The notes under the pieces are model-generated. The model was not told where the DNA came from. It saw nothing but the letters and a program-made list of their open reading frames with translations, and searched no databases. 22,189 bases of DNA. Source: Fidelibacterota bacterium. Lineage in GTDB: Bacteria; Fidelibacterota; Marinisomatia; Marinisomatales; UBA2128. Both the position numbers and the translations under genes were made by a program. This document shows positions 1 to 18,927 of this stretch, in pieces (positions within the stretch are counted from its first letter, which is position 1; each line of letters opens with the position of its first letter). The stretch lies in the NCBI GenBank assembly GCA_046861645.1, contig JBHHUM010000034.1, positions 1 through 22,189 on the forward strand, written 5' to 3'.

Positions 1-59
1 AGCTCCTTACCCTGATACACTCCCCGATACAGTCACTCCGTTCCCTACGAGGCCGGCGT

Positions 60-290: not shown

Positions 291-337
291 TGGTGTAAAC
301 AACATGCAAATCAGTTTATCTTTAGAACATAGCCATT

Positions 338-1399
338 TCAATATATTCTTTTCTGTGATACTGAATCAAAAAGACACAGTTTTTTAACATTAAACCCTAT
401 TTCTATCTTATCTTTTAAGTCGTCAATATCTAATCCCCGTACTTTTGCCGTTAGCACATTTTCGCCAACCTTGAGATGCAGAATAGTCTCATTACCCAGA
501 GGCTCAGCCACAATGAGAGGGAGGGCATTCCCACCGGTAACTACCCGTATTGTACCTGGTCTGATTCCTATCACAACGGACTGGCCTTCAAACTCCCTGA
601 TCCCCGTTTTCCTTCCCAAATCAATTGACAACCCATCAGTTTTGAATATGCCGTTTTCAATAATGCCTTTCAGCAAGTTCATGGGAGGGGAGCCAATGAA
701 ACCCGCAACAAAAATATTGTCTGGATTCCGGTAAACCTTCATAGGAATACCTACCTGCTGAATATGACCCTCATTAATGACAACAATCCGGTCACCCATG
801 GTCATGGCCTCGACCTGATCGTGAGTAACATAGATCATGGTATTCCCCAACCGTTGATGGAGTCGTTTGATTTCAGCCCGCATTTGAACCCTTAGTTTTG
901 AATCAAGATTGGACAGTGGTTCATCAAAAAGAAACACCTGAGGATCACGTATTATCGCTCGTCCCAGGGCAACTCTTTGCCGTTGACCCCCCGAAAGCTG
1001 TTTGGGTTTACGTTGCAATAGATTCTGTATCCCCAGTATGTCAGCTACGGACGAAACTCGCTGAGCTATCTCCACTTTAGGGACCTTGCGTAACTTCAAT
1101 CCGAAAGCAAGATTATCATATACATTTAGATGGGGATAAAGGGCATAATTCTGGAATACCATGGCAATATCCCTATCCTTGGGCGGTACTTTATTGACCT
1201 GCTTTTCCGCAATAAATACTTCACCCGTGGTGGGTGTTTCCAAACCGGCAATAATCCGCAATAGAGTTGATTTACCACACCCCGAGGGTCCAACCAATAC
1301 GAGAAACTCTCCATCGTTCACCTCTAATGAAAAATTTTCTATTATACTCTGACCTTTCTGAAAGGACTTGTTAATATTTTTCAAAGTAACTGATGCCAT
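338..1399 (-). CDS. Sugar ABC transporter ATP-binding protein (MalK/MsmX/UgpC type)
   Basis: Walker A GPSGCGKS, signature LSGGQRQR, Walker B FLFDEPLSNLD, H-loop YVTHDQVEAMT and FVAGFIGSPPMN, plus a C-terminal TOBE-like tail. AAGGA SD upstream. Confidence 0.97.
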   Translation of the reverse strand: MASVTLKNINKSFQKGQSIIENFSLEVNDGEFLVLVGPSGCGKSTLLRIIAGLETPTTGEVFIAEKQVNKVPPKDRDIAMVFQNYALYPHLNVYDNLAFGLKLRKVPKVEIAQRVSSVADILGIQNLLQRKPKQLSGGQRQRVALGRAIIRDPQVFLFDEPLSNLDSKLRVQMRAEIKRLHQRLGNTMIYVTHDQVEAMTMGDRIVVINEGHIQQVGIPMKVYRNPDNIFVAGFIGSPPMNLLKGIIENGIFKTDGLSIDLGRKTGIREFEGQSVVIGIRPGTIRVVTGGNALPLIVAEPLGNETILHLKVGENVLTAKVRGLDIDDLKDKIEIGFNVKKLCLFDSVSQKRIY

Positions 1400-1517
1400 A
1401 ATACATCCTTATTTTTCTACAGGATCTCCGTACGAAGGAGGATAAATACTACGGATATTGATAATTTTCAATTTACTCGTTCCCCACTGTCTGCATCCCA
1501 AAGTTGAATAAACGCCA

Positions 1518-2753
1518 TCAGAAATATCCTCGTTTCTGAATGGCTGACAGACATTCAATCGTAGATTCAGCTCCGGAATTAATATTGACTGAGTTGGAAT
1601 TATCTATTCCGTCATAACAGCGACCGGACTCGGGTTGATACATTTGTACCGCAGCGATATTTTCACCAGCAAACCATTGAAAAACCTTTTCCGAACGCTC
1701 AGCATAAACAGAATCTCCTGTCATCTCAGCCAGTAACTTCACCCCCCTGTAAAGTGAATGAATTCCATAAGCTATTTGTGGAACTTCCTTCAGTGAATAT
1801 TCTCCGCTGAAACTCAAAGTTATTTCCCAGGGAAAATCATTTTCAATAACATAAGGTACAAATGAATCCCCCCAGTCAATTACACTCTTTAACAGGGTGG
1901 AATCACTCGTGATTGTAAACGCCTTTAATAGGCTGAAGGCTTGATTATTACCCCAATTATGCCAGATGTTTTTCCAGCAGAGATACATTCCGTCCAGGTC
2001 ATGATCCGGAGAAAAAAATTGATATCCAATGATTCCTTCCGCAATCTTTTCAATAGTCTCAAGATAATCAAAATCACCACTACTATGCAGTTTGGTCAAG
2101 GCGATCAACAACTCACTATTCATATCCGGAGCACTCTTTATCAACCAAGCCGGTTTCATTCCCAGTGAGGTTAATTCCTGCTCAGGATAATGACTAACCG
2201 CTTCCTGTATATAAACATCTGCTGCTATTATTCTTGCTCTAACTTCCACCATCAATTCTACATATTCAGGACGGTCAACAAAGATAAGATAGGCAGCCGC
2301 CAGGCCCCTTAACCCGCGAACAGCCCACCAACCAAAATCAGCCTGACTGTTCTGGTGAGTGGTATTAATTGAACCATCGGTATATATGAAATTGTACCAT
2401 AAACCGTCTTCCCTGCTCATATATAGAAGAAATTGGGTCAATCCTCTGGCAAGGGGTAATAGTTCACTACTGTGGTACGTCAAAATTTCCGTTTCCAATA
2501 CTTCCATAAAACGACCGGCATCATCGACACAGGCAATCCCCTCACCCGTCGCTGCGACAGGTTCATAACCAGGCGCATCAGCATAAATCCGGATATAGGA
2601 GATAGTCTCCCCTTCAACCTGCATACTATCAACTAACGAAAGGGCGTGCGATAAGTTAACTGGAGATGAAACAAGATCCTGGCTAACGTCTTTTCCCGGC
2701 ATAGTACATCCTGCCAGGGAAATAAAAATTGAAAAGGGGATAATTGACTTCAT
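1518..2753 (-). CDS. Uncharacterised lipoprotein, probable (alpha/alpha)6-barrel carbohydrate-active enzyme
   Basis: Lipobox LAGC (Cys16). Motifs EGIACVDDAGR, DGLWYNF, GRCYDGI and NINSGAESTI. Predominantly helical pattern. The start codon directly abuts the upstream GH130 stop. Confidence 0.7.
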   Translation of the reverse strand: MKSIIPFSIFISLAGCTMPGKDVSQDLVSSPVNLSHALSLVDSMQVEGETISYIRIYADAPGYEPVAATGEGIACVDDAGRFMEVLETEILTYHSSELLPLARGLTQFLLYMSREDGLWYNFIYTDGSINTTHQNSQADFGWWAVRGLRGLAAAYLIFVDRPEYVELMVEVRARIIAADVYIQEAVSHYPEQELTSLGMKPAWLIKSAPDMNSELLIALTKLHSSGDFDYLETIEKIAEGIIGYQFFSPDHDLDGMYLCWKNIWHNWGNNQAFSLLKAFTITSDSTLLKSVIDWGDSFVPYVIENDFPWEITLSFSGEYSLKEVPQIAYGIHSLYRGVKLLAEMTGDSVYAERSEKVFQWFAGENIAAVQMYQPESGRCYDGIDNSNSVNINSGAESTIECLSAIQKRGYF

Positions 2754-3662
2754 CTAAAGAAGCCGACTTTCTTCGTCAAAGATTATATCGTTTAAGTCGA
2801 TATAGGCAGCTCCGATTACTGTATCTGCACCTCCATAAATACAAAATATCCGACCATCTTTCTGTACTGTGGCACAAGAAAAAATGACATTGGGTACAAA
2901 ACCATTAATTTCCCAATCCAGTTTGGGTTCGATAATAGGGTCTTTCTGGCGGGCAATGACCTTCGTAGGATTATCAGCATCCAGTAGTACTGCTCCTAAA
3001 CGGTAGTGATTTTTCTCATCTACTCCGTGAAAAATCAGAAACCATCCTTCATCAATCTTTACTGGCGGACCCGCAATGCCGATCCTGGTTTGATTCCAGG
3101 AACCTGGTAACGGTGACATCACTTTTACATGATCTCCCCAACTCTCCATATCGTCAGAGAAACAAATCCAGATATCCTGGTGTCGCCGGTGAAACATACA
3201 ATATCTTCCTTCAATTTTTTCGGGAAAGAGAGCGGCGTTCTTGTTGGGTTCGTCCAGGACCGTTCCATGTCTTCGCCAGTGAATCAGATCCGAGGAAGAA
3301 GCCAGGCAAATTCTATAATCACTTGGGAATCTACCTGAAAATCCAGTATATGTCATGTAGAACCGATCCTCAAGTTCTACAATCCTGGGATCTTCAGGTC
3401 CTCTCATTTCTTGAGCTACATCATTTATTAGAATGGGCTCGGGTTTTCTTTCCCAATGAATTAAATCGCTGCTGGTCGCATATCCGAGGGAGTTGATATA
3501 GGATCCAAACTTTTCGTCTCCCCCTATGTCCGTTGCCCGATAGATCATATGATACCGTCCCTCGTGGTAAACGGCTCCAGCGTTAAAAACTGCTGCTCTT
3601 TCCCATTCATGCTCCTCGATCGGTTTTAATATCGGTTCTTTCCGCAGTCGTGTCAGTTTCAT
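2754..3662 (-). CDS. GH130 beta-mannoside phosphorylase, resembling beta-1,2-mannobiose/1,2-beta-oligomannan phosphorylases
   Basis: GH130 motifs AVFNAG, EDPRI, NKNAALFPEKI, FHRR, FHGV, YRLG, VPNVIFSC and YGGAD. From recall, it closely resembles Thermoanaerobacter Teth514_1788/1789 (HEWE..AVFN; IGIAGPP; IARQK.PI.EP.LDWEING.VPNV). No signal peptide. Confidence 0.9.
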   Translation of the reverse strand: MKLTRLRKEPILKPIEEHEWERAAVFNAGAVYHEGRYHMIYRATDIGGDEKFGSYINSLGYATSSDLIHWERKPEPILINDVAQEMRGPEDPRIVELEDRFYMTYTGFSGRFPSDYRICLASSSDLIHWRRHGTVLDEPNKNAALFPEKIEGRYCMFHRRHQDIWICFSDDMESWGDHVKVMSPLPGSWNQTRIGIAGPPVKIDEGWFLIFHGVDEKNHYRLGAVLLDADNPTKVIARQKDPIIEPKLDWEINGFVPNVIFSCATVQKDGRIFCIYGGADTVIGAAYIDLNDIIFDEESRLL

Positions 3663-3687: not shown

Positions 3688-4497
3688 TTAACCTTTAATA
3701 CCTGACGTTGCCATACTCTCGATAAAATAACGCTGGAAAAACATATAGACTATGATTACTGGAATAGCTAAAAACATTGCCGCAGCGAGGATCACTCCCT
3801 GCTGCATTTCCGCCGAACCACCAAGAGCGAACAGGGTCACCATTTGTGGCATGGTCATCAGGTTTTGTTCGCGGATGACTATCAGCGGCCAGAGCACCTC
3901 GTTCCAGGCGGTGAGGAATGTAATAATTCCTACAGCCACCATAGCCGGCAATGCATTTGGCCATACTACACGAAACAGAATGGTCAGTTCACTGGACCCG
4001 TCTATCCTTGCAGCGTCAATCAGATTTTTAGGAATGGACTGAAAATATTGCCGAAATAAAAATATTCCAAAACCACTGACCGTAAAGGGAACAATCAGAG
4101 CCAAATATGAATCAGTCCATCCTAACTTAACAATAAGAATATAAGTGGGTATAAGGGTGATCTGAAAAGGAATCATCATGGTGAATAAAATCAAGTAGAA
4201 TAAAGCAGACTTCCCTCTAAAATTCAAATAGGCAAGGGCATAACCAACCATAGAGCTGAATAACAACACCGCAGCCGTAATTGCTGAAGACACTAAGAGA
4301 CTGTTAAGAAATGCTCTGGTGATGGGTATCTTCTCTAAAACGGATTGATAACTTTGGAGGGTAAACTGTGAGGGCCAAAGTGACAATTGCATGATTTCAC
4401 TCTCTGGCTTTAAGGTTGCAAAGGCCATCCACACAAAGGGGTAGAGAAAGGAAAGCGCTCCTAAGGTTAGAATGCCATAGTGGACGATCTTTCTCAT
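3688..4497 (-). CDS. Carbohydrate ABC transporter permease (MalG-type)
   Basis: About six hydrophobic segments, EAA-loop variant IPKNLIDAARIDGS, AWNEVLWPL and terminal FQRYFIESMATSGIKG. Confidence 0.96.
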   Translation of the reverse strand: MRKIVHYGILTLGALSFLYPFVWMAFATLKPESEIMQLSLWPSQFTLQSYQSVLEKIPITRAFLNSLLVSSAITAAVLLFSSMVGYALAYLNFRGKSALFYLILFTMMIPFQITLIPTYILIVKLGWTDSYLALIVPFTVSGFGIFLFRQYFQSIPKNLIDAARIDGSSELTILFRVVWPNALPAMVAVGIITFLTAWNEVLWPLIVIREQNLMTMPQMVTLFALGGSAEMQQGVILAAAMFLAIPVIIVYMFFQRYFIESMATSGIKG

Positions 4498-4600: not shown

Positions 4601-5455
4601 CTACTCCTTTTCAAGGATTTTCTTCTGAATTAGCGTAACGGAGAATATCATCAGCGCCAAGGCAAAGCCTACCGTGGCAGCATAGCCCATCTTATAGAAG
4701 CTGAAGGCTTGGCGGTAGATATAGAGTACCACCGATAGGGTGCTTTGTACTGGACCTCCACCTGTCATCACATAAGGTTCGATAAAGAGATTGAAACCCC
4801 CTATAGTGGACAAAATGACAACCATGATCACTACCGGATTAAGCATGGGAATGGTGATTTTAAAGAATTGCTGGAATTTAGAGGCTCCATCAAGTTCTGC
4901 CGCTTCGTATAAATGTCTCGGTATTCCCTGCAAGCCAGCAAGAAACAAAACGGTATAAAGACCCACATTTTTCCATGTCGCCATAACGGCGATGGACGGC
5001 ATGGCCCAAGCGGTATCAGTCAGCCAGGGAACTCTGGGCAAGCCCACTAATGATAAAACACTGTTCAACAACCCCGTCTCGGTGGAATAGAGATTCTTCC
5101 AAAGAATGGTCACCACCACACCTGAAATCACAACCGGTAAAAAGAAGGAGGCTCGAAAAAACATTACGCCCCGAATGTTTTTATTCAGGGCGTTGGCTAG
5201 AACCAGCGCCACAGCTACCTGGAGAGGAATATGAATCACCAGAAACCAAAGGGTATTTGCCATCGATTTCCAGAAAAGGGGATCATGGGCCAGATAGCGA
5301 ATATTTTCAAGCCCGATAAATTCCATGGGACCTAAAATGTTCCAGCGGTGAAAAACAAGCAATAACGAAAAAGCTATAGGATAAGCAGAGAATAACAGAA
5401 AAAATATGATATAAGGTGAGGCGAACAGCCAACCAACCTTAGATTGGTTGACCAT
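4601..5455 (-). CDS. Carbohydrate ABC transporter permease (MalF/UgpA-type)
   Basis: FIGLEN, EAA loop IPRHLYEAAELDGA, MTGGGP and MGYAA motifs. The start directly abuts the stop of the binding-protein gene. Confidence 0.96.
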   Translation of the reverse strand: MVNQSKVGWLFASPYIIFFLLFSAYPIAFSLLLVFHRWNILGPMEFIGLENIRYLAHDPLFWKSMANTLWFLVIHIPLQVAVALVLANALNKNIRGVMFFRASFFLPVVISGVVVTILWKNLYSTETGLLNSVLSLVGLPRVPWLTDTAWAMPSIAVMATWKNVGLYTVLFLAGLQGIPRHLYEAAELDGASKFQQFFKITIPMLNPVVIMVVILSTIGGFNLFIEPYVMTGGGPVQSTLSVVLYIYRQAFSFYKMGYAATVGFALALMIFSVTLIQKKILEKE

Positions 5456-6757
5456 TTATGTTTTCTCCCGCAAGACAAGTACCTGGCACCGCTGGGCAGC
5501 ATCACGAAGTGCTTCCGCACTGCTTTTCATTCCGTGGAGACAGGCAGCATCAAACTCTTGTGAGATAATATCAAACATTTCCTGCAAATAAATGGACTGA
5601 TCCGCACCTCCAATATTAGGTATCATCTCAGCAAAAAATCTATACTGGGGGTACTCATAAAAGTAATTATAGAAGAGTGAATCTGTCAATAGACCTGCTC
5701 GAATGGGCATCTGATTGGTAATATCCAAAAGTTTCTTATCATTCGAGCGAGACACCATGAACTTCACAAATTCCCACGCTATAGCAGGTCGCTTTGTTGA
5801 TGCAAAAATACAGATGTTCTTGGGATCGCCATACGTATACAGTTTACCCTGATAATCATCTGGTACAGGAATGGGCATAATTCCATACTGAAACCCTTCC
5901 GGTCTGAATTTCTCAATGTGAGCAATATTCCACGGTCCACTAATGTGAGTTGCCACCTTACCCTGTAAAAACACATCACCCTGGAAAAAAGCATTAGGAA
6001 AATATCCACGTTGAAATCCCTTACTCAGAAAATCAAAGACAGCTTTACCTACCGGCGAGTCAATCGTGATCTCGTTATCTGCTCCAATGAGTGTGCTTCC
6101 TCCTGAAGCTGCAATATAAAAAGTGTAAAAATCAAAGAAGCGGTGCCACCATTCCGTATTAATATCTATATCCATCATCCACTGATCAAAATAACCATCA
6201 TGATCAAGGTCTTGAGTCAATATCTCAGCAGCCGCGAAATAATCTGAATAAGTCTTCAACGGTGCAGTAATGCCATTTTCCTTAAATAACTGTCTGTTGT
6301 AATAGAGCACAATAGGATTGCATTTCCAGGGCATCTGATAAATGAAACCATCTTTGGATCGAAATTGATCATGCAATTCCACAGGAATACGGGAGGTAAA
6401 GAGGCTATCGAATCCTGGCAGAGTATCCATTCTGACGACAACTCCCGCTTCCACATATTGCTGCGCGGTTCCAGGCCAGAGGTTGGAATAGATATCCGGG
6501 GTTGTATTGCTGACAATCGCCGCAAGTATCACCTCCTCGCTGGATCGTCCTTCAGGTATGGGCTGATGTTTCACCAACCATGCGGGATGAAGCTCATTCC
6601 ACTGTTTAACAACTTCTAATGCCAAAGTGATTTCGTGGGGATTATTAGAAGACCAATAGGTAAGGAGGTAAGGGCTTTCTGAGGATCCTGATCGAGAGCA
6701 ACCGGAAAACAACATACCGGTTAGTATGACAATAGAAGTTACTCCCATGATTTTCAT
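5456..6757 (-). CDS. Sugar ABC transporter substrate-binding lipoprotein (SBP family 1)
   Basis: Lipobox-like LFSGC, then PDI, LYYNRQLF, F.QGKVA..ISGPW and AWEFVKFM motifs. Adjacent to two permeases. Confidence 0.93.
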   Translation of the reverse strand: MKIMGVTSIVILTGMLFSGCSRSGSSESPYLLTYWSSNNPHEITLALEVVKQWNELHPAWLVKHQPIPEGRSSEEVILAAIVSNTTPDIYSNLWPGTAQQYVEAGVVVRMDTLPGFDSLFTSRIPVELHDQFRSKDGFIYQMPWKCNPIVLYYNRQLFKENGITAPLKTYSDYFAAAEILTQDLDHDGYFDQWMMDIDINTEWWHRFFDFYTFYIAASGGSTLIGADNEITIDSPVGKAVFDFLSKGFQRGYFPNAFFQGDVFLQGKVATHISGPWNIAHIEKFRPEGFQYGIMPIPVPDDYQGKLYTYGDPKNICIFASTKRPAIAWEFVKFMVSRSNDKKLLDITNQMPIRAGLLTDSLFYNYFYEYPQYRFFAEMIPNIGGADQSIYLQEMFDIISQEFDAACLHGMKSSAEALRDAAQRCQVLVLREKT

Positions 6758-6762
6758 GGAAA

Positions 6763-7782
6763 TCAGGAGGTAAAGCTTATGGTGACAGCCTGTAAAAAGC
6801 CCAGGTGGCCAAAATCGCGGTACCCGTAATCCACAGCAATTGATCCAAATGAAGTAGGTACTATTACACCACCCCCCAGACTAAAACCCTCTATACTATC
6901 ATCCTGTTGAAGACTACTACTTCCCAATCTTAAAAAGACTGAATTCCACAGGGAAATTTCAACGCCCGCATCAATAGCTTCATAATTATTGCTGGGATGA
7001 ATGGCATCTACTTCCGCCGATACTCTCAACTGTTTACTTTTTATGATATCGGTGGCCAGTCCAAAGCGGAAGTTCAGCGGCAGCGACCAGACATCCAAAC
7101 CGTATTCAGCCGGGATAAGATTGTTATTTCCTTCAATAGTAGGATCAGGATCATGTACAATGTCCATATCCCGACCGTCCATCTGCATATCAGTTCCATA
7201 GTTACTCAACACCACGATTACCTTTAAACCGTTGAACAGGTTCGTAGTATATGAAGTGCCAAAATCGATGGCGGTACCCCGGGCCACCGAGTGCCAGATA
7301 CGCTCCTGTACATACTTGATATTGGCTCCGATGGCAAATCTGTCCGTGAGGGCTCTGGCGGCAGAGACAGCAATGACCATATCCCCGGCATCAAAGAATT
7401 GACCAGTTCCCTCCTGTTCAATCTCAGTACGTACCGGCATATCATCCATCGACCAGGTTGATATAAAGGCTCCCAACACAAACTGCTGTCTCAGGGGAAC
7501 TACTACAGAAAAATGTTGAACTCGCGTATCGACAAACCAGGGCAAATAGGAAGCGCTTATTAGGAGTGATTTGACCGTGGCTGCTGAGGCGGGATTCCAA
7601 AAGAACACCGTGGCATCCTCGGTTAATCCACCCACAGCGTTTCCCAGAGCCATCCCCCTGGCACTACCAGGAAAGCTGAGAATTTCACCAGCAGTAGTCC
7701 CCACTTTGGAAACGTTACTGACAAAATTCTGGGAGCTGGCAACTCCTACCATCAACAGAACGATGAATGTGAGCTTCTGCAT
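6763..7782 (-). CDS. PorV/PorQ-family (UPF0164-like) outer-membrane beta-barrel protein
   Basis: Signal peptide followed by SKVGTT..IL.FPGSARGMALGNA...D...FWNPA, typical of PorV/FadL-like barrels, then amphipathic beta-strands. Start reassigned to the ATG at 7782 (MQKL), 1 nt after the upstream stop. Confidence 0.85.
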   Translation of the reverse strand: MQKLTFIVLLMVGVASSQNFVSNVSKVGTTAGEILSFPGSARGMALGNAVGGLTEDATVFFWNPASAATVKSLLISASYLPWFVDTRVQHFSVVVPLRQQFVLGAFISTWSMDDMPVRTEIEQEGTGQFFDAGDMVIAVSAARALTDRFAIGANIKYVQERIWHSVARGTAIDFGTSYTTNLFNGLKVIVVLSNYGTDMQMDGRDMDIVHDPDPTIEGNNNLIPAEYGLDVWSLPLNFRFGLATDIIKSKQLRVSAEVDAIHPSNNYEAIDAGVEISLWNSVFLRLGSSSLQQDDSIEGFSLGGGVIVPTSFGSIAVDYGYRDFGHLGFLQAVTISFTS

Positions 7783-7783
7783 C

Positions 7784-10700
7784 TTACTTGATAACAGCAA
7801 ATTTCCCCACAGCCTCTTGCCCGAAGGCCTCTATGACGTAGAAGTAGATTCCATAGGCAATGTTCATTCCATCCTTACTTACCAGATCCCATGCTTCCTG
7901 TCCACTTCCTCCCGTCCCATTATGCTCGATTGTATCTACCAGTTTTCCTGATTTGGTGTAAATGGTAATCGTGCACTGTTCAGGAAGACCCATAAAGTAA
8001 ATTCGACGTTCTCCCCGACCTGATTTGTACAGATTGGATGGCTCAAAAATGCTCGTGGCTACATAAGGATTAGGAACCACAAAAACTTCATCCATGGCAT
8101 CCTTACCCATCTTTTCATCAACCTCAGCCCCTTGCACCGTAAAGCGGTATCGCTCGCTATTACGGAAAGGTTTAGTGGTTGTCACACGAACAAGATCCCC
8201 CGCACCGGGAGGCAGTGGCGTAACGCCCTCTTCGGGAGCAAACAGTCTGATTACCCATGATACCCAGTAATTCGGATATACAGGATCGGCACCCGCACTA
8301 TCACCCGCTAAAATGATTATAGGTTCATTGGCTTGCCATTCATGATCATAAGACAGTGAATCTCCTTGCAGTCTCTCGACAACACCAAACTTGGCATATT
8401 TCTGTTCTGTAGCATTCCATACTCGGAACGGGACTGGTATTCCCGGTCGACCAACGGGTCCATAGGGCCATCCTAACTGGAAAGAAGTATCCACTACCTC
8501 ATTTTCAAAAATTATCATATAATCGGCAGGATAAAGAAGCTTGCGGTTGCCGTAATCGCCCCAGACGTTATCACCCAAAATAAGTTCCTTGACCGTAACA
8601 ACATAATTGGATTGGTGATCACCATACCAGCCACTGGCACTGTCCACAATACTTATTGTTGTGTCGTTGTAAACCACAATACCCAGTCCATTTGTAATAG
8701 GCATTTCCTGTCCATAGAGCTTCACCTCGATAGAGTCAAATAAAGTCGTCTGGCTGGTGTTATCCTGGAGACTTACCATTGGTATTGAATCATCGTAATG
8801 GGAGGACTCCTCGGAAAAAACCAATTGGTATTCATGTCCATCTTTCAGGGAATCGCTTTGCACGACAAAAACATCAACGTATCCTGTGGCAGGACCCGGC
8901 AGTGTATCCCACTCAACAAAAATTTGTTCGTCGATACTTCCTTCTGTATAACCTGCGGCTTTCACCCGGGGTGTAACTACAGCCGTATTGATATCGGTCT
9001 CCACATTTTGAGAAATATCCACTTGAATAATAGCCGAACATTCACTCGGTGACAATCCTCTCACATGACCATTCTGATCTAACTGAAAATTCCCATCAGA
9101 ATCTATAGCAATCAGCCCGCGATCATAGGACACCACCGCATAGTAGTAGGTCTGCCCATTAATGACATTCCTATCAATATAATAGTGGCGAAGACCGGTA
9201 TCATTGCCGAGATTGTACTTGAGACCATCAATATCAACTGGATGCAAACCCGATATTCCATTTGCCATATCAAACTGTGCTATCCCCTTCTTAAAAGTCT
9301 CTTCCCCGTAGGTGTTGGTGATGGTTCGAATCTCATTGAAAAAAGGTTCGGTACTGCGGTATATCTTATAGCCCTCAAAGTCATAATCACCTAAAAATGG
9401 GTCAAAGGAATCTTCAGCCCTATCATCCCAATAAAGGATAACCTGTCCATCACCAGGTATAGCTGTTAATATGGGTTTCAGTGGCGGTTGAGCAAAGCGG
9501 TAGTCAGCATTATAAATCTGTTGTACTGTCTCTTTTTTCCGAGCCAGGGAGGAGTTTCTTATTTCATCACTACTGGGAGCATCAGGAAAATCCTTATCAG
9601 CAAAAATCAGAGCCATGGAGAATCTCTCTGTATGTCCCGCGGGCATAGGAAAAGGTCCAGATGAGAAAAACATACCGAGATTCCTTCCCCCTTCCAGGTA
9701 AACCTCTTCAGGTCGTTGCAGCACAGTAAATATCTCATGCCAATTTTCTTCATCGTTGATAAGCTCATAATCATGTACATCGAAGACGCTAAAACCGGTC
9801 AATCCCAATTGATCAGATTCATCTTTGTCCGTTTGATTATAGTCAGGTTCTCCATCAGTAGGTATGCCATCCCCCTCTCCCGTATCTCGCCCGGGATAGC
9901 TGGGATGATACGGCGCCAGTCCATCCACGCCAACATCATCATTAAGCGGTTCATCTGGATCCCATATCCCATTTCCATTCTCGTCTGAATAGCCTTCCCA
10001 ATCCTGGTCCTCATCACCTTCCCAGTGGGGTCTCGGCTCACGACTGTAAAACTCTTCAAACTTGACCACATCGTCTACTCCATAAGGATACACATCAAGC
10101 CAGGACCCGGGGTCATTATCACGCTCTTCGTCAACAATGCCATCCTCGTCGTTATCTAAATCATCAAAAGGATTTCCTGGGCTTTCCAGGAAGGCATAAG
10201 CAGCGACACCGGTAGGAGCCCACTGTCCGGGTTGACCAATGCCATTGAAATCCCAGGCAAAGGCTATATCAAGATAGGTGCTATATCCCCCTTCATCATC
10301 ACCGGAGTCATCTGTACCACCAATCCCCCAGTCGATGTATTGGGAAAAGTAAACGGAATCGTAATCAGTTTTACCTTCATTGATAATCTCATAGTGCCAA
10401 AAAATGACGTCTTGAGCGAGGACGTGAGACCACTGAAAACCTCTCACTCTAACTTCCATACCAGCTCCGCCACGGGTTGTATCGTCCGGATCAGGATAGA
10501 AGACCCCTGCCCCAGTAGTCGTATCACTGGCATAGAACCACTCTTCGTCGGGGGAATCATCGCATACGAAATAAGTTTCCACATCAGCATTGGTCATGTC
10601 CCGACCGAAATAGCCATTCCATTCTCCCGCCCATTCTGGTTTATCTGCCCAGGCATCCGGCCAGGTAAAGGGATCATCGCTTCTGGCGGGAGAGCTCTGT

Positions 10701-11074
10701 CTTGGATTAGAGTAGCCAGGTAAGGGACCCCAACCCCAGGCGGTTTTATCTACTGGATCAATATCCTTAAATTCTCGATAATTTGTAGACATGGGATGAA
10801 TTCTATTACCGAGGGTATCCAATGTCGATACGGCAATAACAAGCGCCACACCATCCACATAGGAATGACCGGTACCTTTAGGCCATTCCCCTGAGGGTTG
10901 ATCAGGCCAACGGGCGACTTCGGCATGATTGGCGTAGAGGGTTCGAACCGCATTCCCATCCAGTATGCCCCATTGGGTATATTTCACATCGCCCTTTTGA
11001 GGATCTCCCTGGCTGAAGAGTAATGAAGGGAGGGCAAATAGGAACAGTACGCAGATTAATGGAACTTTGTTCAT
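7784..11074 (-). CDS. Large secreted hypothetical protein (~1096 aa) with acidic Ca-binding-like repeats, FN3-like domain and T9SS-type C-terminal domain
   Basis: True start is probably the ATG at 11074 (MNKVPLICVLFLFALPSLLFS signal peptide), 2 nt after the receptor stop. It has DxDxDG-like motifs (DDLDNDEDGIVDE, DENGNGIWD) and an FN3-like segment (GDGQVILYW...FEGYKIYRS...NGQTYYYAVVSYD). The C-terminus reads VVPNPY...IYTKSGKLV...WDL...GIYFY...KFAVIK. Confidence 0.85.
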   Translation of the reverse strand: MNKVPLICVLFLFALPSLLFSQGDPQKGDVKYTQWGILDGNAVRTLYANHAEVARWPDQPSGEWPKGTGHSYVDGVALVIAVSTLDTLGNRIHPMSTNYREFKDIDPVDKTAWGWGPLPGYSNPRQSSPARSDDPFTWPDAWADKPEWAGEWNGYFGRDMTNADVETYFVCDDSPDEEWFYASDTTTGAGVFYPDPDDTTRGGAGMEVRVRGFQWSHVLAQDVIFWHYEIINEGKTDYDSVYFSQYIDWGIGGTDDSGDDEGGYSTYLDIAFAWDFNGIGQPGQWAPTGVAAYAFLESPGNPFDDLDNDEDGIVDEERDNDPGSWLDVYPYGVDDVVKFEEFYSREPRPHWEGDEDQDWEGYSDENGNGIWDPDEPLNDDVGVDGLAPYHPSYPGRDTGEGDGIPTDGEPDYNQTDKDESDQLGLTGFSVFDVHDYELINDEENWHEIFTVLQRPEEVYLEGGRNLGMFFSSGPFPMPAGHTERFSMALIFADKDFPDAPSSDEIRNSSLARKKETVQQIYNADYRFAQPPLKPILTAIPGDGQVILYWDDRAEDSFDPFLGDYDFEGYKIYRSTEPFFNEIRTITNTYGEETFKKGIAQFDMANGISGLHPVDIDGLKYNLGNDTGLRHYYIDRNVINGQTYYYAVVSYDRGLIAIDSDGNFQLDQNGHVRGLSPSECSAIIQVDISQNVETDINTAVVTPRVKAAGYTEGSIDEQIFVEWDTLPGPATGYVDVFVVQSDSLKDGHEYQLVFSEESSHYDDSIPMVSLQDNTSQTTLFDSIEVKLYGQEMPITNGLGIVVYNDTTISIVDSASGWYGDHQSNYVVTVKELILGDNVWGDYGNRKLLYPADYMIIFENEVVDTSFQLGWPYGPVGRPGIPVPFRVWNATEQKYAKFGVVERLQGDSLSYDHEWQANEPIIILAGDSAGADPVYPNYWVSWVIRLFAPEEGVTPLPPGAGDLVRVTTTKPFRNSERYRFTVQGAEVDEKMGKDAMDEVFVVPNPYVATSIFEPSNLYKSGRGERRIYFMGLPEQCTITIYTKSGKLVDTIEHNGTGGSGQEAWDLVSKDGMNIAYGIYFYVIEAFGQEAVGKFAVIK

Positions 11075-11076
11075 GT

Positions 11077-13758
11077 TCAAAAATCCACCGAGAGTCCCAG
11101 GAGAATTTGCCGGGGCGGGCTGTACCAATCCGGTCGAGTGAAAAATTCCTCCTTGGTGTTCCACCCCTGGACTTCTCCAGGACGATTCAACTCTTCCGTA
11201 TAGGTCGCTCGTCCTGAATCACCATAGACATTTCTTTCATTAAGACGATCAAATAAGTTATATATTTTCAGAACCAATTTTACGGACACTCCTGGAAAGG
11301 AGATTTCTTTTCTGGCAAAAAGATCAAAGATTAGTTGTTGAGGTTTACGATCACTATTTTCTATAACTGCACGGGTTTTATCAACGCTGGGTGTGTAGGG
11401 CATTCCGCTTCCGTACCTGCCAACCATGGTAACCACTGTTTTAGATGCAGGTTGCAATGAAATCTGAGCATTAAGTGTATGAGTCTGATCCCAATCGAGA
11501 AATACCAGCTGCTTTTCCGACTCTATCGGTGGGTCACTTTGGTTATCAATTAGAACCGCTTTGGGATCGGACGCATTCCCCCGAGCTACCTGGTAAGTAT
11601 AATCTATACTGGCTCCGATCCCCATGATCAACCTTTTTTCCAGCATTAGAGTAAAGCCTCTAACTTGACCATAATCCCTATTGATGTATCGCCCATAGTC
11701 TATCCCCGCATGATTTTCACCTGTGGCAATTGTGTGAATCTCTGTACCCAGGAGATTTCTGATATCCTTATAATAAGCCGTGGCTTCAATTCTGACGTCA
11801 GCAGTAATCTGTTGCTGGATGCCCACTTCATAAGCTACGGTCTTTTGTGGTTTTAACTCAGCATTTCCAAAGGGAAAATTCAATACATTGGCGCGGCCGC
11901 CTTCCGGGTTAATGGTAAACTCAGGATTCGTGTAAAGGACTTCAAACCGCGGCACCTGAAAGAAATGACCGTAGGATGCATGCATGACTCCTTTATCGGA
12001 GATGGGATAAGCGAGACCGAATCTAGGACTCCACTGAACATACGGTTTGGAAGTAGAACGCTCTGAACTCTGAGGGCGCTCTAAATCATTAACCACCTCT
12101 CCCCTGGCATCGAAATAGTCCAGTCTAACTCCAGCATTGATAATCAAATCTTTAGACTCCACCTTGGTTTGCAGATAGGCAGCACCTTCAAGGGGATCTC
12201 GATTGTATTCCTGATTATCCGCAGTATTGGGAGGAGGAACCTGTATTTCAAAACCGGTCTCGGGGTTTCGTTTAAGTTCCAGGTCATGAAGATATAACTG
12301 ATGCAATTGCCATTCGGTACCAGTGCTCACTTCGACTGTTCGGTTCAATTGCGAGGTAATATCCGCTTTAAAGGTCGCTGTTTGTGTGCTTCTTTCATAA
12401 TAACGCATATCAGTACCACCGGTATAAAAAGAGAAATTACCATGATCTTCGAGTCTCGTATCGGTTGAGTACCGGGTATCAAGGGAGTCATCGAATAAGA
12501 AACGATCATATTCTTTCCATAAATAAGAAAGTGCCAAGTTGAAATAGGTGCGTTGAGAAAGAAGAAAATTCCAGGACACATAACCAATTATATTTCTTTC
12601 CCCAATGCGACTATTCCCCTTGGGAGTGAATGAAAACATGTGTTCATAGATTCCATAGTTTCGATTCTGGTAAGTCATGTTAAAAGCAATTCTGCTGCGA
12701 GAAGTCAGGGGAAACGAAATCTTACCAAATATTGATTCACGACGATAGTCTGACATCGGCACAAAACCAAGAGTATCCCGGAAAACAACACTATCATCCA
12801 GAACGGAAGGTTCAAAATAATCTCTCCCAAAAAGATGTCCTTCGTCAGTAGTTAACTGGTAATTAAAGAGGTATCTCATGCGACCCAGCAGAGGACCATT
12901 CAGAAATAGTGAATATTCACTGTAAGCCAGGGGATTAATTTCATCGATGTTGCGAAAGATGTCTGTATTGGTGGAATAATAGTCTCCCAATGTAGTGCTG
13001 AAGTTACCTCCAAAATTATCCATCCCTTCCCGAGTAATAATTTCTACGATACCCGATTGAGCCTGACCATACTCAGCATTAAAGGTTCCACTGACGACTT
13101 TCAATTCCTGAATTACACTATTTTCTACAAGTAAGGCAGCATTACTGGCGAAGACATCATTCACCGGAATGCCATCAATCAGGTACGAGACTTCCTGACT
13201 CCGGCCACCCCGAAAGTGCCCATCAACAACACCAGCCTGAAGATTCAACAGGTCATCTACCGTTTGCACAGGCATAATCTCTATTTGTTGAGCAGATACC
13301 GAAGCGGATGTAGATGTTCGATCGATCTCAATAACCGGTTTTTCAGCAACTACAGTCACTGCTTCAGCCGCTTCAAGAACCGTCGGGTGGAGTGCACCGT
13401 TCACTTCAGTAGTATGATCAGAGCGAACATCAATATTATCAATGATGAGTTCTGTATAGCCAATCATGGAAAACTTCAAGGAGTACAGTCCCGGGCTTAC
13501 ATTCAGAATCAAGTAAAAACCATCCGCTCTGCTGGCAGCACCTAATTGCGTACCAGTGATGACTACATTAACACCAGCCAGAGGATCTCCTTCGGAATCG
13601 GTAACGGTGCCCATGATTTTACCAGTGGTCGCCCCCTGTGACAATGTTGTAATTCCTATTAAAAAAGTAATGAAAACCAGGTTATAAAAGACCCCTGAAC
13701 GGGAATTATTGATCTGTTGCTTCTGCCTGGTCAAAATGACAGTCCTTTTGTTATCCAA
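11077..13758 (-). CDS. TonB-dependent receptor
   Basis: N-terminal carboxypeptidase-regulatory-like domain (GKIMGTVTD..G.PL.GVNV), plug (FRGGRS.EV.YLIDG; GTFNAEYGQAQSG), barrel motifs (GVRLDY, SPRFG, LKPQKT..YEVG) and terminal Phe (GLSVDF). The start is uncertain: TTG at 13758, or TTG at 13734 with an AAGGA SD. Confidence 0.93.
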   Translation of the reverse strand: MDNKRTVILTRQKQQINNSRSGVFYNLVFITFLIGITTLSQGATTGKIMGTVTDSEGDPLAGVNVVITGTQLGAASRADGFYLILNVSPGLYSLKFSMIGYTELIIDNIDVRSDHTTEVNGALHPTVLEAAEAVTVVAEKPVIEIDRTSTSASVSAQQIEIMPVQTVDDLLNLQAGVVDGHFRGGRSQEVSYLIDGIPVNDVFASNAALLVENSVIQELKVVSGTFNAEYGQAQSGIVEIITREGMDNFGGNFSTTLGDYYSTNTDIFRNIDEINPLAYSEYSLFLNGPLLGRMRYLFNYQLTTDEGHLFGRDYFEPSVLDDSVVFRDTLGFVPMSDYRRESIFGKISFPLTSRSRIAFNMTYQNRNYGIYEHMFSFTPKGNSRIGERNIIGYVSWNFLLSQRTYFNLALSYLWKEYDRFLFDDSLDTRYSTDTRLEDHGNFSFYTGGTDMRYYERSTQTATFKADITSQLNRTVEVSTGTEWQLHQLYLHDLELKRNPETGFEIQVPPPNTADNQEYNRDPLEGAAYLQTKVESKDLIINAGVRLDYFDARGEVVNDLERPQSSERSTSKPYVQWSPRFGLAYPISDKGVMHASYGHFFQVPRFEVLYTNPEFTINPEGGRANVLNFPFGNAELKPQKTVAYEVGIQQQITADVRIEATAYYKDIRNLLGTEIHTIATGENHAGIDYGRYINRDYGQVRGFTLMLEKRLIMGIGASIDYTYQVARGNASDPKAVLIDNQSDPPIESEKQLVFLDWDQTHTLNAQISLQPASKTVVTMVGRYGSGMPYTPSVDKTRAVIENSDRKPQQLIFDLFARKEISFPGVSVKLVLKIYNLFDRLNERNVYGDSGRATYTEELNRPGEVQGWNTKEEFFTRPDWYSPPRQILLGLSVDF

Positions 13759-13858: not shown

Positions 13859-16372
13859 TTACTTAAGGTAAGTGATCTTGCGGACTTGAGATTCCTTATG
13901 ATCCAGAAGGATCCGTGCAAAATAAGGACCTGATGGAGCAGGTGTTCCATCACTTCTCTTACCGTTCCATTGAACCTGATGTCGGCCCCGCTCAAGATTC
14001 TCATCAATGAGAGTAGCTACTTCACGTCCGAGAATATCATAGATTATCAATTTGACATGCTCCAGTTGTGGAATGTCAAAAACAATATTGATAGTCGGAT
14101 TGAACGGGTTGGGATATGCTGTAAGTAGTTTAAACTCCTCCGGCATAATTCCATCAGTATACTGGTCTTCAATGGCAAGAGGTGTAGTCTTCATCACCAT
14201 AAAGTCATCCCAGTAGCTCGTCCCACGGAAGAAATGCCAGTACCGAGCTCTCAAACTGAACTGGGTAGCATCATCAGGTGGTGTCAATACCGCCTGATAC
14301 AGCGTCCAATCCGTAGTGTCACCAGCCACTTCAAACCGGTAATCACTACCGCCAACTTCTCCCCAGTTATCTGCACCCATCGTGCCATCATGCCAGGTAA
14401 CTGTGAAACCCATACCATAACTCGGATCGCTGTTTACTGAATCGGCCAGCCCATCAGCTAACTCGGCCTTGATGTAAACCGAAAATACCAGTGGTGAACC
14501 ATCATTGACAAACTCCGTGGGATCAGAGTTGACCACCACTTCATAGCCGGTACCATCCTTAACCAACTTCAAGGAAGCGTCTCCCGAATGGGACTCCTCT
14601 GTCGTCTGTCCGGCAAAGACCGGCACTTCCGTGTCCCATGCAGAATCGCCCCAACTGAAATTAGGCCACCAGTAAAACCAGCCCTCCGGTACATCTACAT
14701 TGGGATTGAAGAAATCTCCAGCCCACTCTCCGTCCGTCGTATTCCTGATGAAATAATCATCTAAATACGCCGTACCTGTGGCTGCCGAACCCATCTTGAA
14801 CTCCGTCGTGATCTGTGATACGGTCACCGGAAACGAAAGGGGATCGGTACTCTTTACCTCCACCCAATCAGTACTGGCTGACGTCTGCGGAACATCTATG
14901 ACATACGGCGCCCCTAACAGATCATCACCATTTTCATCCAGAAAATTGAATATGACCTGTATCTTCTCGTCATCTGAAGACGGATTTGTATTCACTCCGT
15001 CCAACTTCACCCAAGCGCCAACTTCCATCCCTACATTCTGACCTACAAACACTGACCAGTAACGATATAAATCATCACTGAGCCAGGATGCCGTGCCGTC
15101 AGAACTGGTCTTGGATATCTTCAACGAGTGACCACCTGTCCGTGACTCCGCTGTGCTCCAGCTTATGTCAGCGGTCGTTGAGGTGCCTCCTGTGGTGAAA
15201 TAATTCGGTGTATCACCCTCAAAGCTACTATTGGGCAGATCGTTATCAGCAGCAGTTGCCTGTTCCACAAAGAAGTCATCCCAGTAGGTAGTCCCACGGA
15301 AGAAATGCCAGTACCGAGCTCTCAAACTGAACTGGGTAGCATCATCAGGTGGTGTCAATACCGCCTGATACAGCGTCCAATCCGTAGTGTCACCAGCCAC
15401 TTCAAACCGGTAATCACTACCGCCAACTTCTCCCCAGTTATCTGCACCCATCGTGCCATCATGCCAGGTAACTGTGAAACCCATACCATAACTCGGATCG
15501 CTGTTTACTGAATCGGCCAGCCCATCAGCTAACTCGGCCTTGATGTAAACCGAAAATACCAGTGGTGAACCATCATTGACAAACTCCGTGGGATCAGAGT
15601 TGACCACCACTTCATAGCCGGTACCATCCTTAACCAACTTCAAGGAAGCGTCTCCCGAATGGGACTCCTCTGTCGTCTGTCCGGCAAAGACCGGCACTTC
15701 CGTGTCCCATGCAGAATCGCCCCAACTGAAATTAGGCCACCAGTAAAACCAGCCCTCCGGTACATCTACATTGGGATTGAAGAAATCTCCAGCCCACTCT
15801 CCGTCCGTCGTATTCCTGATGAAATAATCATCTAAATACGCCGTACCTGTGGCTGCCGAACCCATCTTGAACTCCGTCGTGATCTGTGATACGGTCACCG
15901 GAAACGAAAGGGGATCGGTACTCTTTACCTCCACCCAATCAGTACTGGCTGACGTCTGCGGAACATCTATGACATACGGCGCCCCTAACAGATCATCACC
16001 ATTTTCATCCAGAAAATTGAATATGACCTGTATCTTCTCGTCATCTGAAGACGGATTTGTATTCACTCCGTCCAACTTCACCCAAGCGCCAACTTCCATC
16101 CCTACATTCTGACCTACAAACACTGACCAGTAACGATATAAATCATCACTGAGCCAGGATGCCGTGCCGTCAGAACTGGTCTTGGATATCTTCAACGAGT
16201 GACCACCTGTCCGTGACTCCGCTGTGCTCCAGCTTATGTCAGCGGTCGTTGAGGTGCCTCCTGTGGTGAAATAATTCGGTGTATCACCCTCAAAACCACC
16301 GTTGGGAAGGCCACCCAACAGCAGGGAGGTCGTCATTAGCGTCCCTATGATCACGCTTATTACGTTTCTCAT
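13859..16372 (-). CDS. Secreted multi-module carbohydrate-binding protein (4 CBM4/9-like beta-sandwich modules) with T9SS type A/FlgD-like C-terminal domain
   Basis: Strong SD (GAGGAGG/AAGGA) and a signal peptide. Modules carry N..FE...RTG..SLK...W.....DD patterns, two per 357-aa repeat unit. The C-terminus reads AYPNPFNP...IYDILGREV..L...G.H.V.WNG...SG.YF...KITYLK. No catalytic domain was recognised. Confidence 0.85.
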   Translation of the reverse strand: MRNVISVIIGTLMTTSLLLGGLPNGGFEGDTPNYFTTGGTSTTADISWSTAESRTGGHSLKISKTSSDGTASWLSDDLYRYWSVFVGQNVGMEVGAWVKLDGVNTNPSSDDEKIQVIFNFLDENGDDLLGAPYVIDVPQTSASTDWVEVKSTDPLSFPVTVSQITTEFKMGSAATGTAYLDDYFIRNTTDGEWAGDFFNPNVDVPEGWFYWWPNFSWGDSAWDTEVPVFAGQTTEESHSGDASLKLVKDGTGYEVVVNSDPTEFVNDGSPLVFSVYIKAELADGLADSVNSDPSYGMGFTVTWHDGTMGADNWGEVGGSDYRFEVAGDTTDWTLYQAVLTPPDDATQFSLRARYWHFFRGTTYWDDFFVEQATAADNDLPNSSFEGDTPNYFTTGGTSTTADISWSTAESRTGGHSLKISKTSSDGTASWLSDDLYRYWSVFVGQNVGMEVGAWVKLDGVNTNPSSDDEKIQVIFNFLDENGDDLLGAPYVIDVPQTSASTDWVEVKSTDPLSFPVTVSQITTEFKMGSAATGTAYLDDYFIRNTTDGEWAGDFFNPNVDVPEGWFYWWPNFSWGDSAWDTEVPVFAGQTTEESHSGDASLKLVKDGTGYEVVVNSDPTEFVNDGSPLVFSVYIKAELADGLADSVNSDPSYGMGFTVTWHDGTMGADNWGEVGGSDYRFEVAGDTTDWTLYQAVLTPPDDATQFSLRARYWHFFRGTSYWDDFMVMKTTPLAIEDQYTDGIMPEEFKLLTAYPNPFNPTINIVFDIPQLEHVKLIIYDILGREVATLIDENLERGRHQVQWNGKRSDGTPAPSGPYFARILLDHKESQVRKITYLK
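14220..15223. repeat. Intragenic direct repeat, copy 1 (1004 bp)
   Basis: No mismatch found by eye against 15291-16294 (offset 1071 bp = 357 codons). Opposite-strand shadow ORFs are also identical between the copies. Confidence 0.95.
15291..16294. repeat. Intragenic direct repeat, copy 2 (1004 bp)
   Basis: Matches 14220-15223 and is separated from it by a 67-bp linker. Confidence 0.95.
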
Positions 16373-16544: not shown

Positions 16545-17495
16545 TCATAAAGGTGAACGAGAATTCTGTAAGCACATCTCAACCAAATCCTTAATTTTAG
16601 CCGTCCCCACACACATGACCGTATCAGCTCCCCCCCAATAAATCCTCACTGAGCCATCATTTTCCGGTACCGCTCCACAGGAAAACACCACATTGTCTAC
16701 ATAACCTGTTACTTCCCAGGGATCTTCCGGTTGGAGAATCCAGTCATCGGACACTCCAATGATATTCGCCGGATCATCTATATCATGGAGTGCTACACCT
16801 AATCTGTAGACACAGCCATTCATCGTGGGAAATACACCATGATAAATACTCAACCAACCACTCTCCGTCTCAATTGGAGTTGCCCCCGGACCTATTTTCA
16901 TTTCATCCCAGTGATAAGGTACCGGTTTGATCAACAGTTGCGAATTCCCCCAATTAACCAGGTCTGGAGAATAGGAAATCCACATTGACCAGGGTGAAAT
17001 CTCAGAGTTGGGTCGATCAAGCCTAACATACAATCCGTTAAATTTTTTGGGGAAAAGAACAAGATTTCGATAGTCAGCCTGAGTAATCATAGAAATTCTT
17101 TCTAACTCTTCAAAGTTAGAGGTTTTTGCCAGGCCAATTCTGACACCAAAACGAGAATAAGCACTATATGTAATGTAAAACTCGTCATCAATCTCACATA
17201 TTCTGGGATCCTCTACCCCATATTCTTCATAGATCGAGAATCCACCACTGTTACCTGGTACAAGAAAAGGTTCAGGGCGTACATTAAAGCAAAACCCATC
17301 ATCGCTATCTGCAATCCCGATAATCGAACGTCCATTCCTGCGGTGGGCTCGGAATAACATAACATAGGAACCATTTTTTTTTACTACGGCAGCATTATGT
17401 ACCGTTTCTACTGGATAAGGGACATCCTTTTTTGTCAATATAGGATTACCTTCGTAGCGCTTGACTATAGGCTCCCTGTTTTCAGGCTTATTCAT
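16545..17495 (-). CDS. GH130 family glycoside phosphorylase/hydrolase (beta-mannoside-active)
   Basis: RYEGNPIL, VHNAAV, GVEDPRI, RNLVLFPKK, RLDRP, KIGPG, IYHGV, YRLG, NVVFSCG and YWGGADT motifs. No signal peptide. Confidence 0.92.
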   Translation of the reverse strand: MNKPENREPIVKRYEGNPILTKKDVPYPVETVHNAAVVKKNGSYVMLFRAHRRNGRSIIGIADSDDGFCFNVRPEPFLVPGNSGGFSIYEEYGVEDPRICEIDDEFYITYSAYSRFGVRIGLAKTSNFEELERISMITQADYRNLVLFPKKFNGLYVRLDRPNSEISPWSMWISYSPDLVNWGNSQLLIKPVPYHWDEMKIGPGATPIETESGWLSIYHGVFPTMNGCVYRLGVALHDIDDPANIIGVSDDWILQPEDPWEVTGYVDNVVFSCGAVPENDGSVRIYWGGADTVMCVGTAKIKDLVEMCLQNSRSPL

Positions 17496-17892: not shown

Positions 17893-18927
17893 TTACGGAC
17901 TTGAGTTCTTTTGGCTGGATTCTCTTACCACTAACTCAACGGGAATTAAACGGGTTTGGTACAGTCGTTCGCTGTTTTTGATTCTATCCATGAGTAACCT
18001 GACCGCCTCCATACCCATCTCAATTTTGGGAACATGAACGGTAGAAAGCGGGGGATGGGTCACAGCAGCATAATTAACATCATCGAAACCGATTACAGCA
18101 ATTTCATCCGGGATGCGTTTATTTTGTTTATCAAGCTCTTGCAGACAACCCAGGGCAATCGTATCATTGACACAAATAATGGCTTGAATATCAGGCACAC
18201 TTTCCAGAACAGAGGACGTCCCTGCAACTCCTACTTCAGGAGTAGCTTCATCATCAATCATGTAATAGAAAGCTTTGTCTCTTGCTGAATCACCCAAACC
18301 GAATTCATCCATACTCGCCTGATAACTCTGAAAACGCTCCCTGATAGAAGGATGATAGAAAGACCCTCCAATAAAACCAATCCTCTTCATACCTTGATTG
18401 ACCAAATGCTCAACAGCCTGATAAACTCCTGAGCGATTGTCCATAAATACAGAATCGACCCTTAGGTCAGATAAGCTGAAATCTATCAACACCTGGGGAA
18501 GATTCACTTTGCGGATGTAGCGAATCAAGTCCTCATGGATGCTGCCAGCAACGATAATACCATCCACATCTCGGCCCTTTAGAAATCTCGGTATGTGACG
18601 GGGAACCTCTAAATCAGCACCTACAGTGGAAAGAAGTAGATAGGTATCATAATTCCGTGCCTCCAACTCCGCCCCTAATAGAATCCTTGAGTAAAATGCT
18701 TCAGATCGGGATAGGTGTACGTCCGATATAATGAAGCCTATATTCCCGGTGTGATTGGAGGCTAATTGTTGAGCACTGCGCAGAGGTCTATAGTTGTACT
18801 CATCAATGATCTTCTGGACTTTTGCTCTGGTGGCATCACTGACATAACCTCGCCCCGACAGGACGAGAGAGACTGTGGATATCGACACCCCCGCAAACTT
18901 GGCGATATCTCTGATTGTAATGCCCAC
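17893..18927 (-). CDS. LacI-family transcriptional repressor
   Basis: N-terminal HTH ITIRDIAKFAGVSISTVSLVL, hinge YRP...AQQL, and ND..ALG, IPDEIAVIGFDD, PPLSTV and LVVRES motifs. GTG start. Confidence 0.97.
   Translation of the reverse strand: MGITIRDIAKFAGVSISTVSLVLSGRGYVSDATRAKVQKIIDEYNYRPLRSAQQLASNHTGNIGFIISDVHLSRSEAFYSRILLGAELEARNYDTYLLLSTVGADLEVPRHIPRFLKGRDVDGIIVAGSIHEDLIRYIRKVNLPQVLIDFSLSDLRVDSVFMDNRSGVYQAVEHLVNQGMKRIGFIGGSFYHPSIRERFQSYQASMDEFGLGDSARDKAFYYMIDDEATPEVGVAGTSSVLESVPDIQAIICVNDTIALGCLQELDKQNKRIPDEIAVIGFDDVNYAAVTHPPLSTVHVPKIEMGMEAVRLLMDRIKNSERLYQTRLIPVELVVRESSQKNSSP

Follow-up and report, generated by a model that had tools for sequence, protein, structure and literature searches.

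A widespread exported (alpha/alpha)6-barrel family beside beta-1,2-mannoside phosphorylases: a candidate new family of glycoside hydrolases

What does an exported protein of no curated family do directly beside a GH130 phosphorylase gene? The question is raised by a 411-aa protein (here the target) encoded in the window, the whole stretch of 22,189 nt analysed here, which is an entire contig of a 2.5 Mb genome (94% complete) with a single copy of the target gene. The locus, all on the minus strand, runs LacI, GH130, 837-aa repeat protein, TonB receptor, 1126-aa partner, PorV, solute-binding protein (SBP), two permeases, GH130, target and ABC ATPase. The original prediction took the target to be an unclassified lipoprotein enzyme, directly coupled to the GH130 and possibly the missing depolymerase of the locus. 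The genes are as follows:

338..1399, minus strand: ABC ATPase, MalK/UgpC type (Pfam, NCBIfam)
1518..2753, minus strand: target gene, YPO2471/7TEM-family (alpha/alpha)6-barrel protein, 411 aa (ORF, homology, fold model)
2706..2753, minus strand: predicted lipoprotein signal peptide of the target, residues 1-16, lipobox LAGC at 13-16 (sequence)
2754..3662, minus strand: GH130 beta-1,2-mannoside phosphorylase, Teth514_1788/1789 clade, E/K signature (NF052550 477 bits, cut-off 450; PDB 9FJ8 E 3e-124)
3688..4497, minus strand: sugar ABC permease (PF00528)
4601..5455, minus strand: sugar ABC permease (PF00528)
5456..6757, minus strand: ABC solute-binding protein (Pfam; barrel-fused homologue in Gemmatirosa)
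6763..7800, minus strand: PorV/PorQ-family protein (NF033709 above cut-off)
7784..11164, minus strand: 1126-aa exported TonB-receptor partner, weak C-terminal sorting-domain match (Pfam, genome paralogues)
11077..13758, minus strand: TonB-dependent receptor (Pfam)
13859..16372, minus strand: 837-aa exported protein with a pair of 357-aa CBM4/9-like repeats and, at the C-terminus, a sorting domain (Pfam; Atlas lead, no family assignment)
16545..17495, minus strand: second GH130, E/R signature, beta-1,3 predicted, beta-1,2 possible (Pfam, signature typing)
17893..18927, minus strand: LacI-family regulator (Pfam)

The proposed coupling is tight, the GH130 stop codon (2754-2756) abutting the target ATG (2751-2753); a promoter/terminator scan of window positions 1-3000 gave chance-level results (7 vs. 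6.5 expected; 3 vs. 2.6 expected). This GH130 matches the Teth514_1788/1789 structures with E 3e-124 and 1e-106, and is above the NCBIfam beta-1,2-mannobiose phosphorylase cut-off. The export signal is also where it was said to be: a hydrophobic stretch is followed by the lipobox Cys of LAGC, predicting lipidation, and 102 of 120 close homologues have a Cys at positions 11-28, while several homologues, by inspection, have a signal peptide without one. The claim that the locus encodes no other exported catalytic protein is borne out, since the 837-aa ORF looks like tandem CBM4/9-type modules, and what the 1126-aa ORF encodes is a partner of the TonB receptor, with paralogues elsewhere in the genome.

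The target reaches the cut-off of no Pfam or NCBIfam model, so that its description as unclassified stands; its sole Pfam match is to GH76 (PF03663), with 18.4 bits against a cut-off of 25.9, over residues 341-392. The nearest named relatives are from Marinimicrobia/Neomarinimicrobiota. Its novelty has to be qualified in one respect: the family already has a solved structure. PDB 7TEM (YPO2471, annotated “putative exported protein”) is its only solved relative, and is homologous over the full length (phmmer E 1.3e-52; profile E 9.4e-79), with the same DD, YDG-like, and GAEST motifs; a difference is the lipobox present in the window protein. A literature search whose scope ended short of CAZy and most subscription journals, where a recent family assignment is possible, found no characterisation of YPO2471 or of the family. 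Among the entries listed for its identifiers, two AlphaFold benchmarking preprints name 7TEM, beside unrelated papers.

An AlphaFold2 model of the target (pLDDT 94.2, from a 62-sequence alignment) has an alternating helix pattern, and both the model and its fold matches show the kind of (alpha/alpha)6 barrel anticipated for a glycosidase. The top match is 7TEM (Z 54.6, TM 0.87, rmsd 1.9, 381 residues, 32% identity over the structural alignment), followed by AGE/cellobiose 2-epimerases (Z 26-30), GH9 (22-27), GH76 (23-25), MmpH (23-24), and then other (alpha/alpha)6 barrels. In such barrels the N-termini of the inner helices line the pocket. The most conserved residues of the target lie at or just ahead of the helix starts at 76, 142, 209, 271, 328, and 395; five of the six are the protein's least charged helices, as expected for inner helices. 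The model combines, as in barrel glycosidases, a helical barrel with conserved polar residues at six alternating inner-helix starts, and the helix order would place the conserved acids in the central pocket.

Three motifs stand out, of which the outer two had been noted beforehand as conserved-looking:

2511..2531, minus strand: CVDDAGR (D77, D78, R81), residues 75-81, start of the first inner helix (conservation, model)
1608..1616, minus strand: YDG (D381), strand between the last two helices, candidate catalytic acid (124/126; kept in GT4-fused domains)
1560..1586, minus strand: NINSGAEST (N390, E396), residues 390-398, start of the last helix (conservation, model)

Among 126 full-domain representatives (out of 151 examined), D78 is kept in all, D381 in 124, D77 and E396 in 123 each, E71 in 121, E400 in 114, and D210 in 106, while most of the target's 54 acidic residues are less than 50% conserved. 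Other residues kept are R81 (124), G394, R146, and Y329 (123 each), W143 (122), and H265 and Q326 (115 each). The acidic motifs are thus conserved as claimed, and the DD pair and the GAEST Glu, put forward as catalytic candidates, are near-invariant; D381, equally conserved, had been missed. The exported branch of the family also conserves E71 and D210. Domains fused to GT4 glycosyltransferases (see below) have lost both of these and H265, but keep DD, D381, and E396, which are therefore the shared core; the residues that are near-invariant in the target family and common to the GT4-fused domains are D77, D78, R81, N121, R146, Q326, D381, N390, and E396.

The family is real and widespread: 1380 of 7110 candidates are members, and at 50% identity it has 936 representatives. 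Of the genomes sampled in the window's phylum, 59 of 201 have a full-length match, as do 33 of 301 in the phylum of a Flavobacterium locus; the family also occurs in several other phyla. Neither the target nor a GH130 is present in two genomes of the same genus as the window, a pattern consistent with patchy gain or loss. The original prediction had mentioned fusions of such DD/GAEST domains to GT4, and these do occur: a GT4 with a C-terminal target-homologous domain (profile probability 99.96%) is found in 4 of 79 loci, and there are at least 7998 GT4-fused barrel proteins. On a Gemmatirosa plasmid (L212:11434-14472), downstream of two GH130 genes, the barrel is instead fused to an ABC solute-binding protein, which is 36% identical to the window's SBP; the Atlas contains a 70-member cluster of this barrel-SBP type. 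Fifty-three long homologues include five with CBM9-like appendages, five with T9SS-type tails, and one with a dockerin-like match; some of those with CBM9-like or T9SS-type modules may act outside the cell.

The GH130 neighbours give a clue to the substrate. GH130 linkage can be read from a two-residue signature, Y/R for beta-1,4, E/K for beta-1,2, and E/R for beta-1,3 (PMC7660257), with 10% of beta-1,2 sequences reported to carry R (Li et al., PMC7660257); the signature tells what linkage the neighbour acts on rather than the barrel's own specificity. Of 79 loci in a GTDB set, 66 have a GH130, and in 65 of those a target ORF was called as well; among these 65, the nearest GH130 has the E/K signature 63 times and E/R twice. 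A GH130 lies within 300 bases of the target in 48 of 78 loci. GH130s of more than 250 aa occur in 56 of 81 metagenome/plasmid loci (n = 95: 86 E/K, 9 E/R, 0 Y/R). A Bacteroidota set (20 regions picked for long contigs among 34 full-length matches) has 30 GH130-like ORFs in 19 loci, 29 of them E/K and one unalignable. There is no Y/R (beta-1,4) GH130 among the 88, 95, and 30 typed neighbours in these sets, which overlap in part and contain kin, and so are phylogenetically non-independent. Twenty control GH130s from family-free genomes, by comparison, are 11 Y/R (seven of them read from the motif, owing to an alignment gap), 4 E/K, 4 E/R, and 1 Q/R. Around the motif, the sequences of the E/K neighbours fall into several different types, so the signal does not depend on a single inherited gene pair. 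In the window's phylum, a hand count finds a GH130 in 58 of 59 genomes carrying the full-length target vs. 26 of 142 non-carriers.

Other arrangements are also found. A Sphingomonas plasmid has a target homologue with an ABC system, a Lin0857-like GH130 (signature E/R, yet E 9e-103 to Lin0857), and a protein of DUF1861, which corresponds to GT108; in some Bacteroidota-type loci, the homologue stands behind SusC/SusD genes. Taken together, gene context points to beta-1,2-mannosides as the substrate class. Of the mannans named in advance as candidates, the beta-1,2-linked one is thus favoured, while beta-1,4-mannan is rejected by the E/K typing of the neighbours and their lack of Y/R.

The target is probably a member of a new glycoside hydrolase family that acts outside the cytoplasm, releasing short beta-1,2-manno-oligosaccharides for ABC import and phosphorolysis. 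As a pathway, a glycan containing beta-1,2-mannosides would enter via the TonB receptor and meet the barrel, which would work outside the cytoplasm and is most likely periplasmic and membrane-anchored. The glycan would be cut by carboxylates at the inner-helix starts, one side supplying D77/D78 and the opposite side D381 or E396, with single displacement as the likelier mechanism. The short beta-1,2-manno-oligosaccharides produced would be imported by the ABC system and phosphorolysed by the adjacent GH130 to mannose 1-phosphate. A periplasmic step fits better than a surface depolymerase, since the target has no sorting domain of the kind found in the 837-aa protein and several homologues have signal peptides without a Cys.

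As to the bond, it is quite possible that the target cuts beta-1,2-Man linkages themselves, in endo fashion or releasing mannobiose; a cut at the bond joining a beta-1,2 chain to alpha-mannan or an aglycone is conceivable, if somewhat less likely. In Candida mannan, beta-1,2 chains are described as capping alpha-mannan or hanging on phosphate (PMC4599007). We would tentatively extend the first variant to an endo-beta-1,2-mannanase or beta-1,2-mannobiohydrolase that founds a new GH family and that might provide the uptake side, with the GT4-fused paralogue in the cytoplasm as the turnover side, of a widespread beta-1,2-mannan (“bacterial mannogen”) metabolism in bacteria. Our search, with the scope given above (outside CAZy and most subscription journals), found no description of an endo-beta-1,2-mannanase; in the literature covered, the enzymes cleaving beta-1,2-mannosides are exo-acting GH130 and GT108 propellers.

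Several known barrels have properties that suggest other roles. The AGE superfamily (cellobiose 2-epimerase, GlcNAc 2-epimerase, mannose isomerase) consists, like the target, of single-domain (alpha/alpha)6 barrels with an Arg on the first inner helix, and its AGE/CE structures are the best characterised fold matches (over ~330 residues at the Z-scores above). The target might then be a divergent epimerase or isomerase acting on the reducing-end sugar of a beta-1,2-mannoside (e.g., Man-1,2-Glc to Man-1,2-Man), with H265 and E396 replacing the His pair; in an approximate profile alignment, R81 aligns with the conserved AGE Arg, and H265 is near one catalytic His. A pairing of CE with GH130 is known from beta-1,4-mannan use, although the Cellvibrio epimerase is predicted to be cytoplasmic (PMC12871903), whereas the target family is exported, sometimes with CBM9-like or sorting domains. 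Cellobiose 2-epimerases are moreover reported to require a three-His centre (PMC5726027). The only conserved His residues of the target family are 36 and 265, one of them near the three AGE positions (H188, H247, and H377 in CsCE); at the other two helix starts, approximate profile mapping puts D210 and E396. H265 is absent from the GT4-fused branch. Identity to AGE proteins is just 9-14%, four near-invariant carboxylates set the target apart, and the AGE Pfam model PF07221 has no match to the target at E <=0.1 and none in the whole genome; we consider this role improbable. It also seems unlikely that the target remodels glycans without hydrolysis, as a transglycosylase or otherwise, or that it is no enzyme but a beta-1,2-mannoside binder passing sugar to the ABC SBP. 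The GT4 fusions suggest a synthesis or turnover role for the domain, the Gemmatirosa SBP fusion also counts in favour of such readings, and GH189 is a retaining transglycosylase among the beta-1,2-glucan barrels (PMC12102758); against these, the target genes sit within uptake/catabolism loci, and four near-invariant carboxylates with Arg, Asn, and Trp at helix starts are more enzyme-like than lectin-like.

The GH76 alpha-1,6-mannanases share with the target a barrel fold, a DD pair, and a mannan context, and account for the weak Pfam match. That match, however, spans only residues 341-392 and so excludes the DD pair, which the target has on the first inner helix and GH76 on a later one. The neighbours of the target are beta-1,2-type phosphorylases, the absence of Y/R types argues against a beta-1,4-mannanase, and a scan of cluster representatives found no GH76, GH92, or GH38 match among recurrent neighbour clusters. 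An endo-mannanase for a common mannan, of either kind, is accordingly very unlikely. GH9 resembles the target in its N-terminal Asp pair, C-terminal Glu, and a G-x-N motif after the penultimate helix, and gives the longest structural alignment after 7TEM (346-348 residues). The profile match is not stable: its probability is 97% when whole proteins are used but 36% for trimmed catalytic domains. GH9 catalytic residues therefore cannot be transferred, and profile alignments to the GH9 and AGE sets do not fix the catalytic residues. Nor is the target a GH9 member as defined by PF00759 and the DAGD and NE..I..N motifs: PF00759 has no hit in it or in the genome, with weak sub-cut-off matches in 2 of the 53 long homologues. 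MmpH, a barrel that cuts mannosides, sets a precedent with its two N-terminal Asp residues and one C-terminal Glu (D47/D50/E262; PMC9883506). A phosphorylase role was rejected on account of the export signal: among the characterised phosphorylases checked in PMC7660257, none has a signal peptide, so an exported one would be unexpected.

Glycoside hydrolysis outside the cytoplasm remains the reading we prefer for the target, and a functional analogy is available. Beta-1,2-glucanase pathways feed a binding protein and a phosphorylase. The enzymes themselves (SGL; GH144/162/192-194) are barrels acting on a beta-1,2-linked glycan, although a glucan rather than a mannan (PMC12102758). Compared with the target by fold score alone, EeSGL1 (8XUJ) reaches a Z of only 19.8; XcSGL has a conserved triad, E239/F286/Y367. 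The closest described mannoside system is the Thermoanaerobacter beta-1,2-oligomannan cluster Teth514_1785-1796 (PMC4264767), which like the window encodes an ABC transporter and two GH130s, but differs in having GH5, GT4, and two hypothetical proteins; the locus tags of the latter have no match in the text supplements of that paper. Chiku et al. state that there is no known source of beta-1,2-oligomannan for Thermoanaerobacter (PMC4264767).

Whether the target is “the” missing depolymerase, as originally proposed, has a divided answer. For this genome the idea holds: the other candidate glycosidases of related loci have no tblastn match in it. Six of 41 loci of at least 15 kb likewise have no other candidate glycosidase within reach, so that the minimal pathway appears to be receptor, ABC system, GH130, and target. 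As a general statement it does not, since the other 35 carry further candidates (a secreted orphan barrel in 24, GH94/GDE-like proteins in 26, GH2 in 20, and GH5 in 2). That it is the depolymerase is not established, because in most of the richer loci the target is accompanied by another, secreted orphan barrel, a GH94/GDE-like protein, and GH2. The second orphan family (L019:2762-5890; 24 of 41 loci) is ~1040 aa long and carries, besides LamG/PKD modules, a tail of T9SS type; the N-terminal portion is confidently modelled as a helical barrel and a beta domain (pLDDT 91), with weak GH127/GH146 matches (TM <=0.4), making it a candidate extracellular enzyme of these loci. It has no profile similarity to the target (probability <5%) and no match in the window's genome. 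The same lack of a match in that genome applies to an unclassified 850-aa exported protein (L070:5407-7953; 26 of 41 loci) with weak GH94/GDE/MGH1-like matches, which recurs next to the target. Also recurrent are a zinc alcohol dehydrogenase (in 11 of the 41 loci) and a PfkB kinase (in 9), now and then with an aldo-keto reductase (L070:7960-8973, L050:1477-2445, L153:9078-10043), a hint that the released sugar or aglycone might follow a polyol or fructose route.

With a widespread barrel family, a solved structure, a well-supported substrate class, and an activity that we infer, the target qualifies as a good candidate to found a new GH family, and its substrate is predicted sharply enough for this to be tested by one assay. 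If the assignment is true, the enzyme would be a tool for the analysis of Candida mannan caps and Leishmania mannogen, and would indicate an unrecognised environmental mannan pool; the uptake and turnover reading, if true, would explain the beta-1,2-mannoside phosphorylases of sediment, groundwater, and marine bacteria.

Some other features of the window can be noted. The second GH130 (16545-17495) has TM1225 as its best PDB match despite its E/R signature, with near relatives in five related loci. The 837-aa ORF contains a duplication (14195-15239 / 15266-16310; 1071-bp spacing) with zero mismatches over ~1000 bases, which suggests either a very recent duplication or an assembly artefact; the two-repeat architecture itself appears natural, since a homologue in locus L027 (31% identity to the repeat unit) also has two copies. 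The locus is flanked by a Fic-domain gene (19895-21052; Pfam) and an integrase-like ORF (21223-22059; by eye, with no Pfam match). Triplets of TonB receptor, 1100-aa partner, and PorV recur on contigs C115, C145, and C165 of the same genome, as a repeated uptake module.
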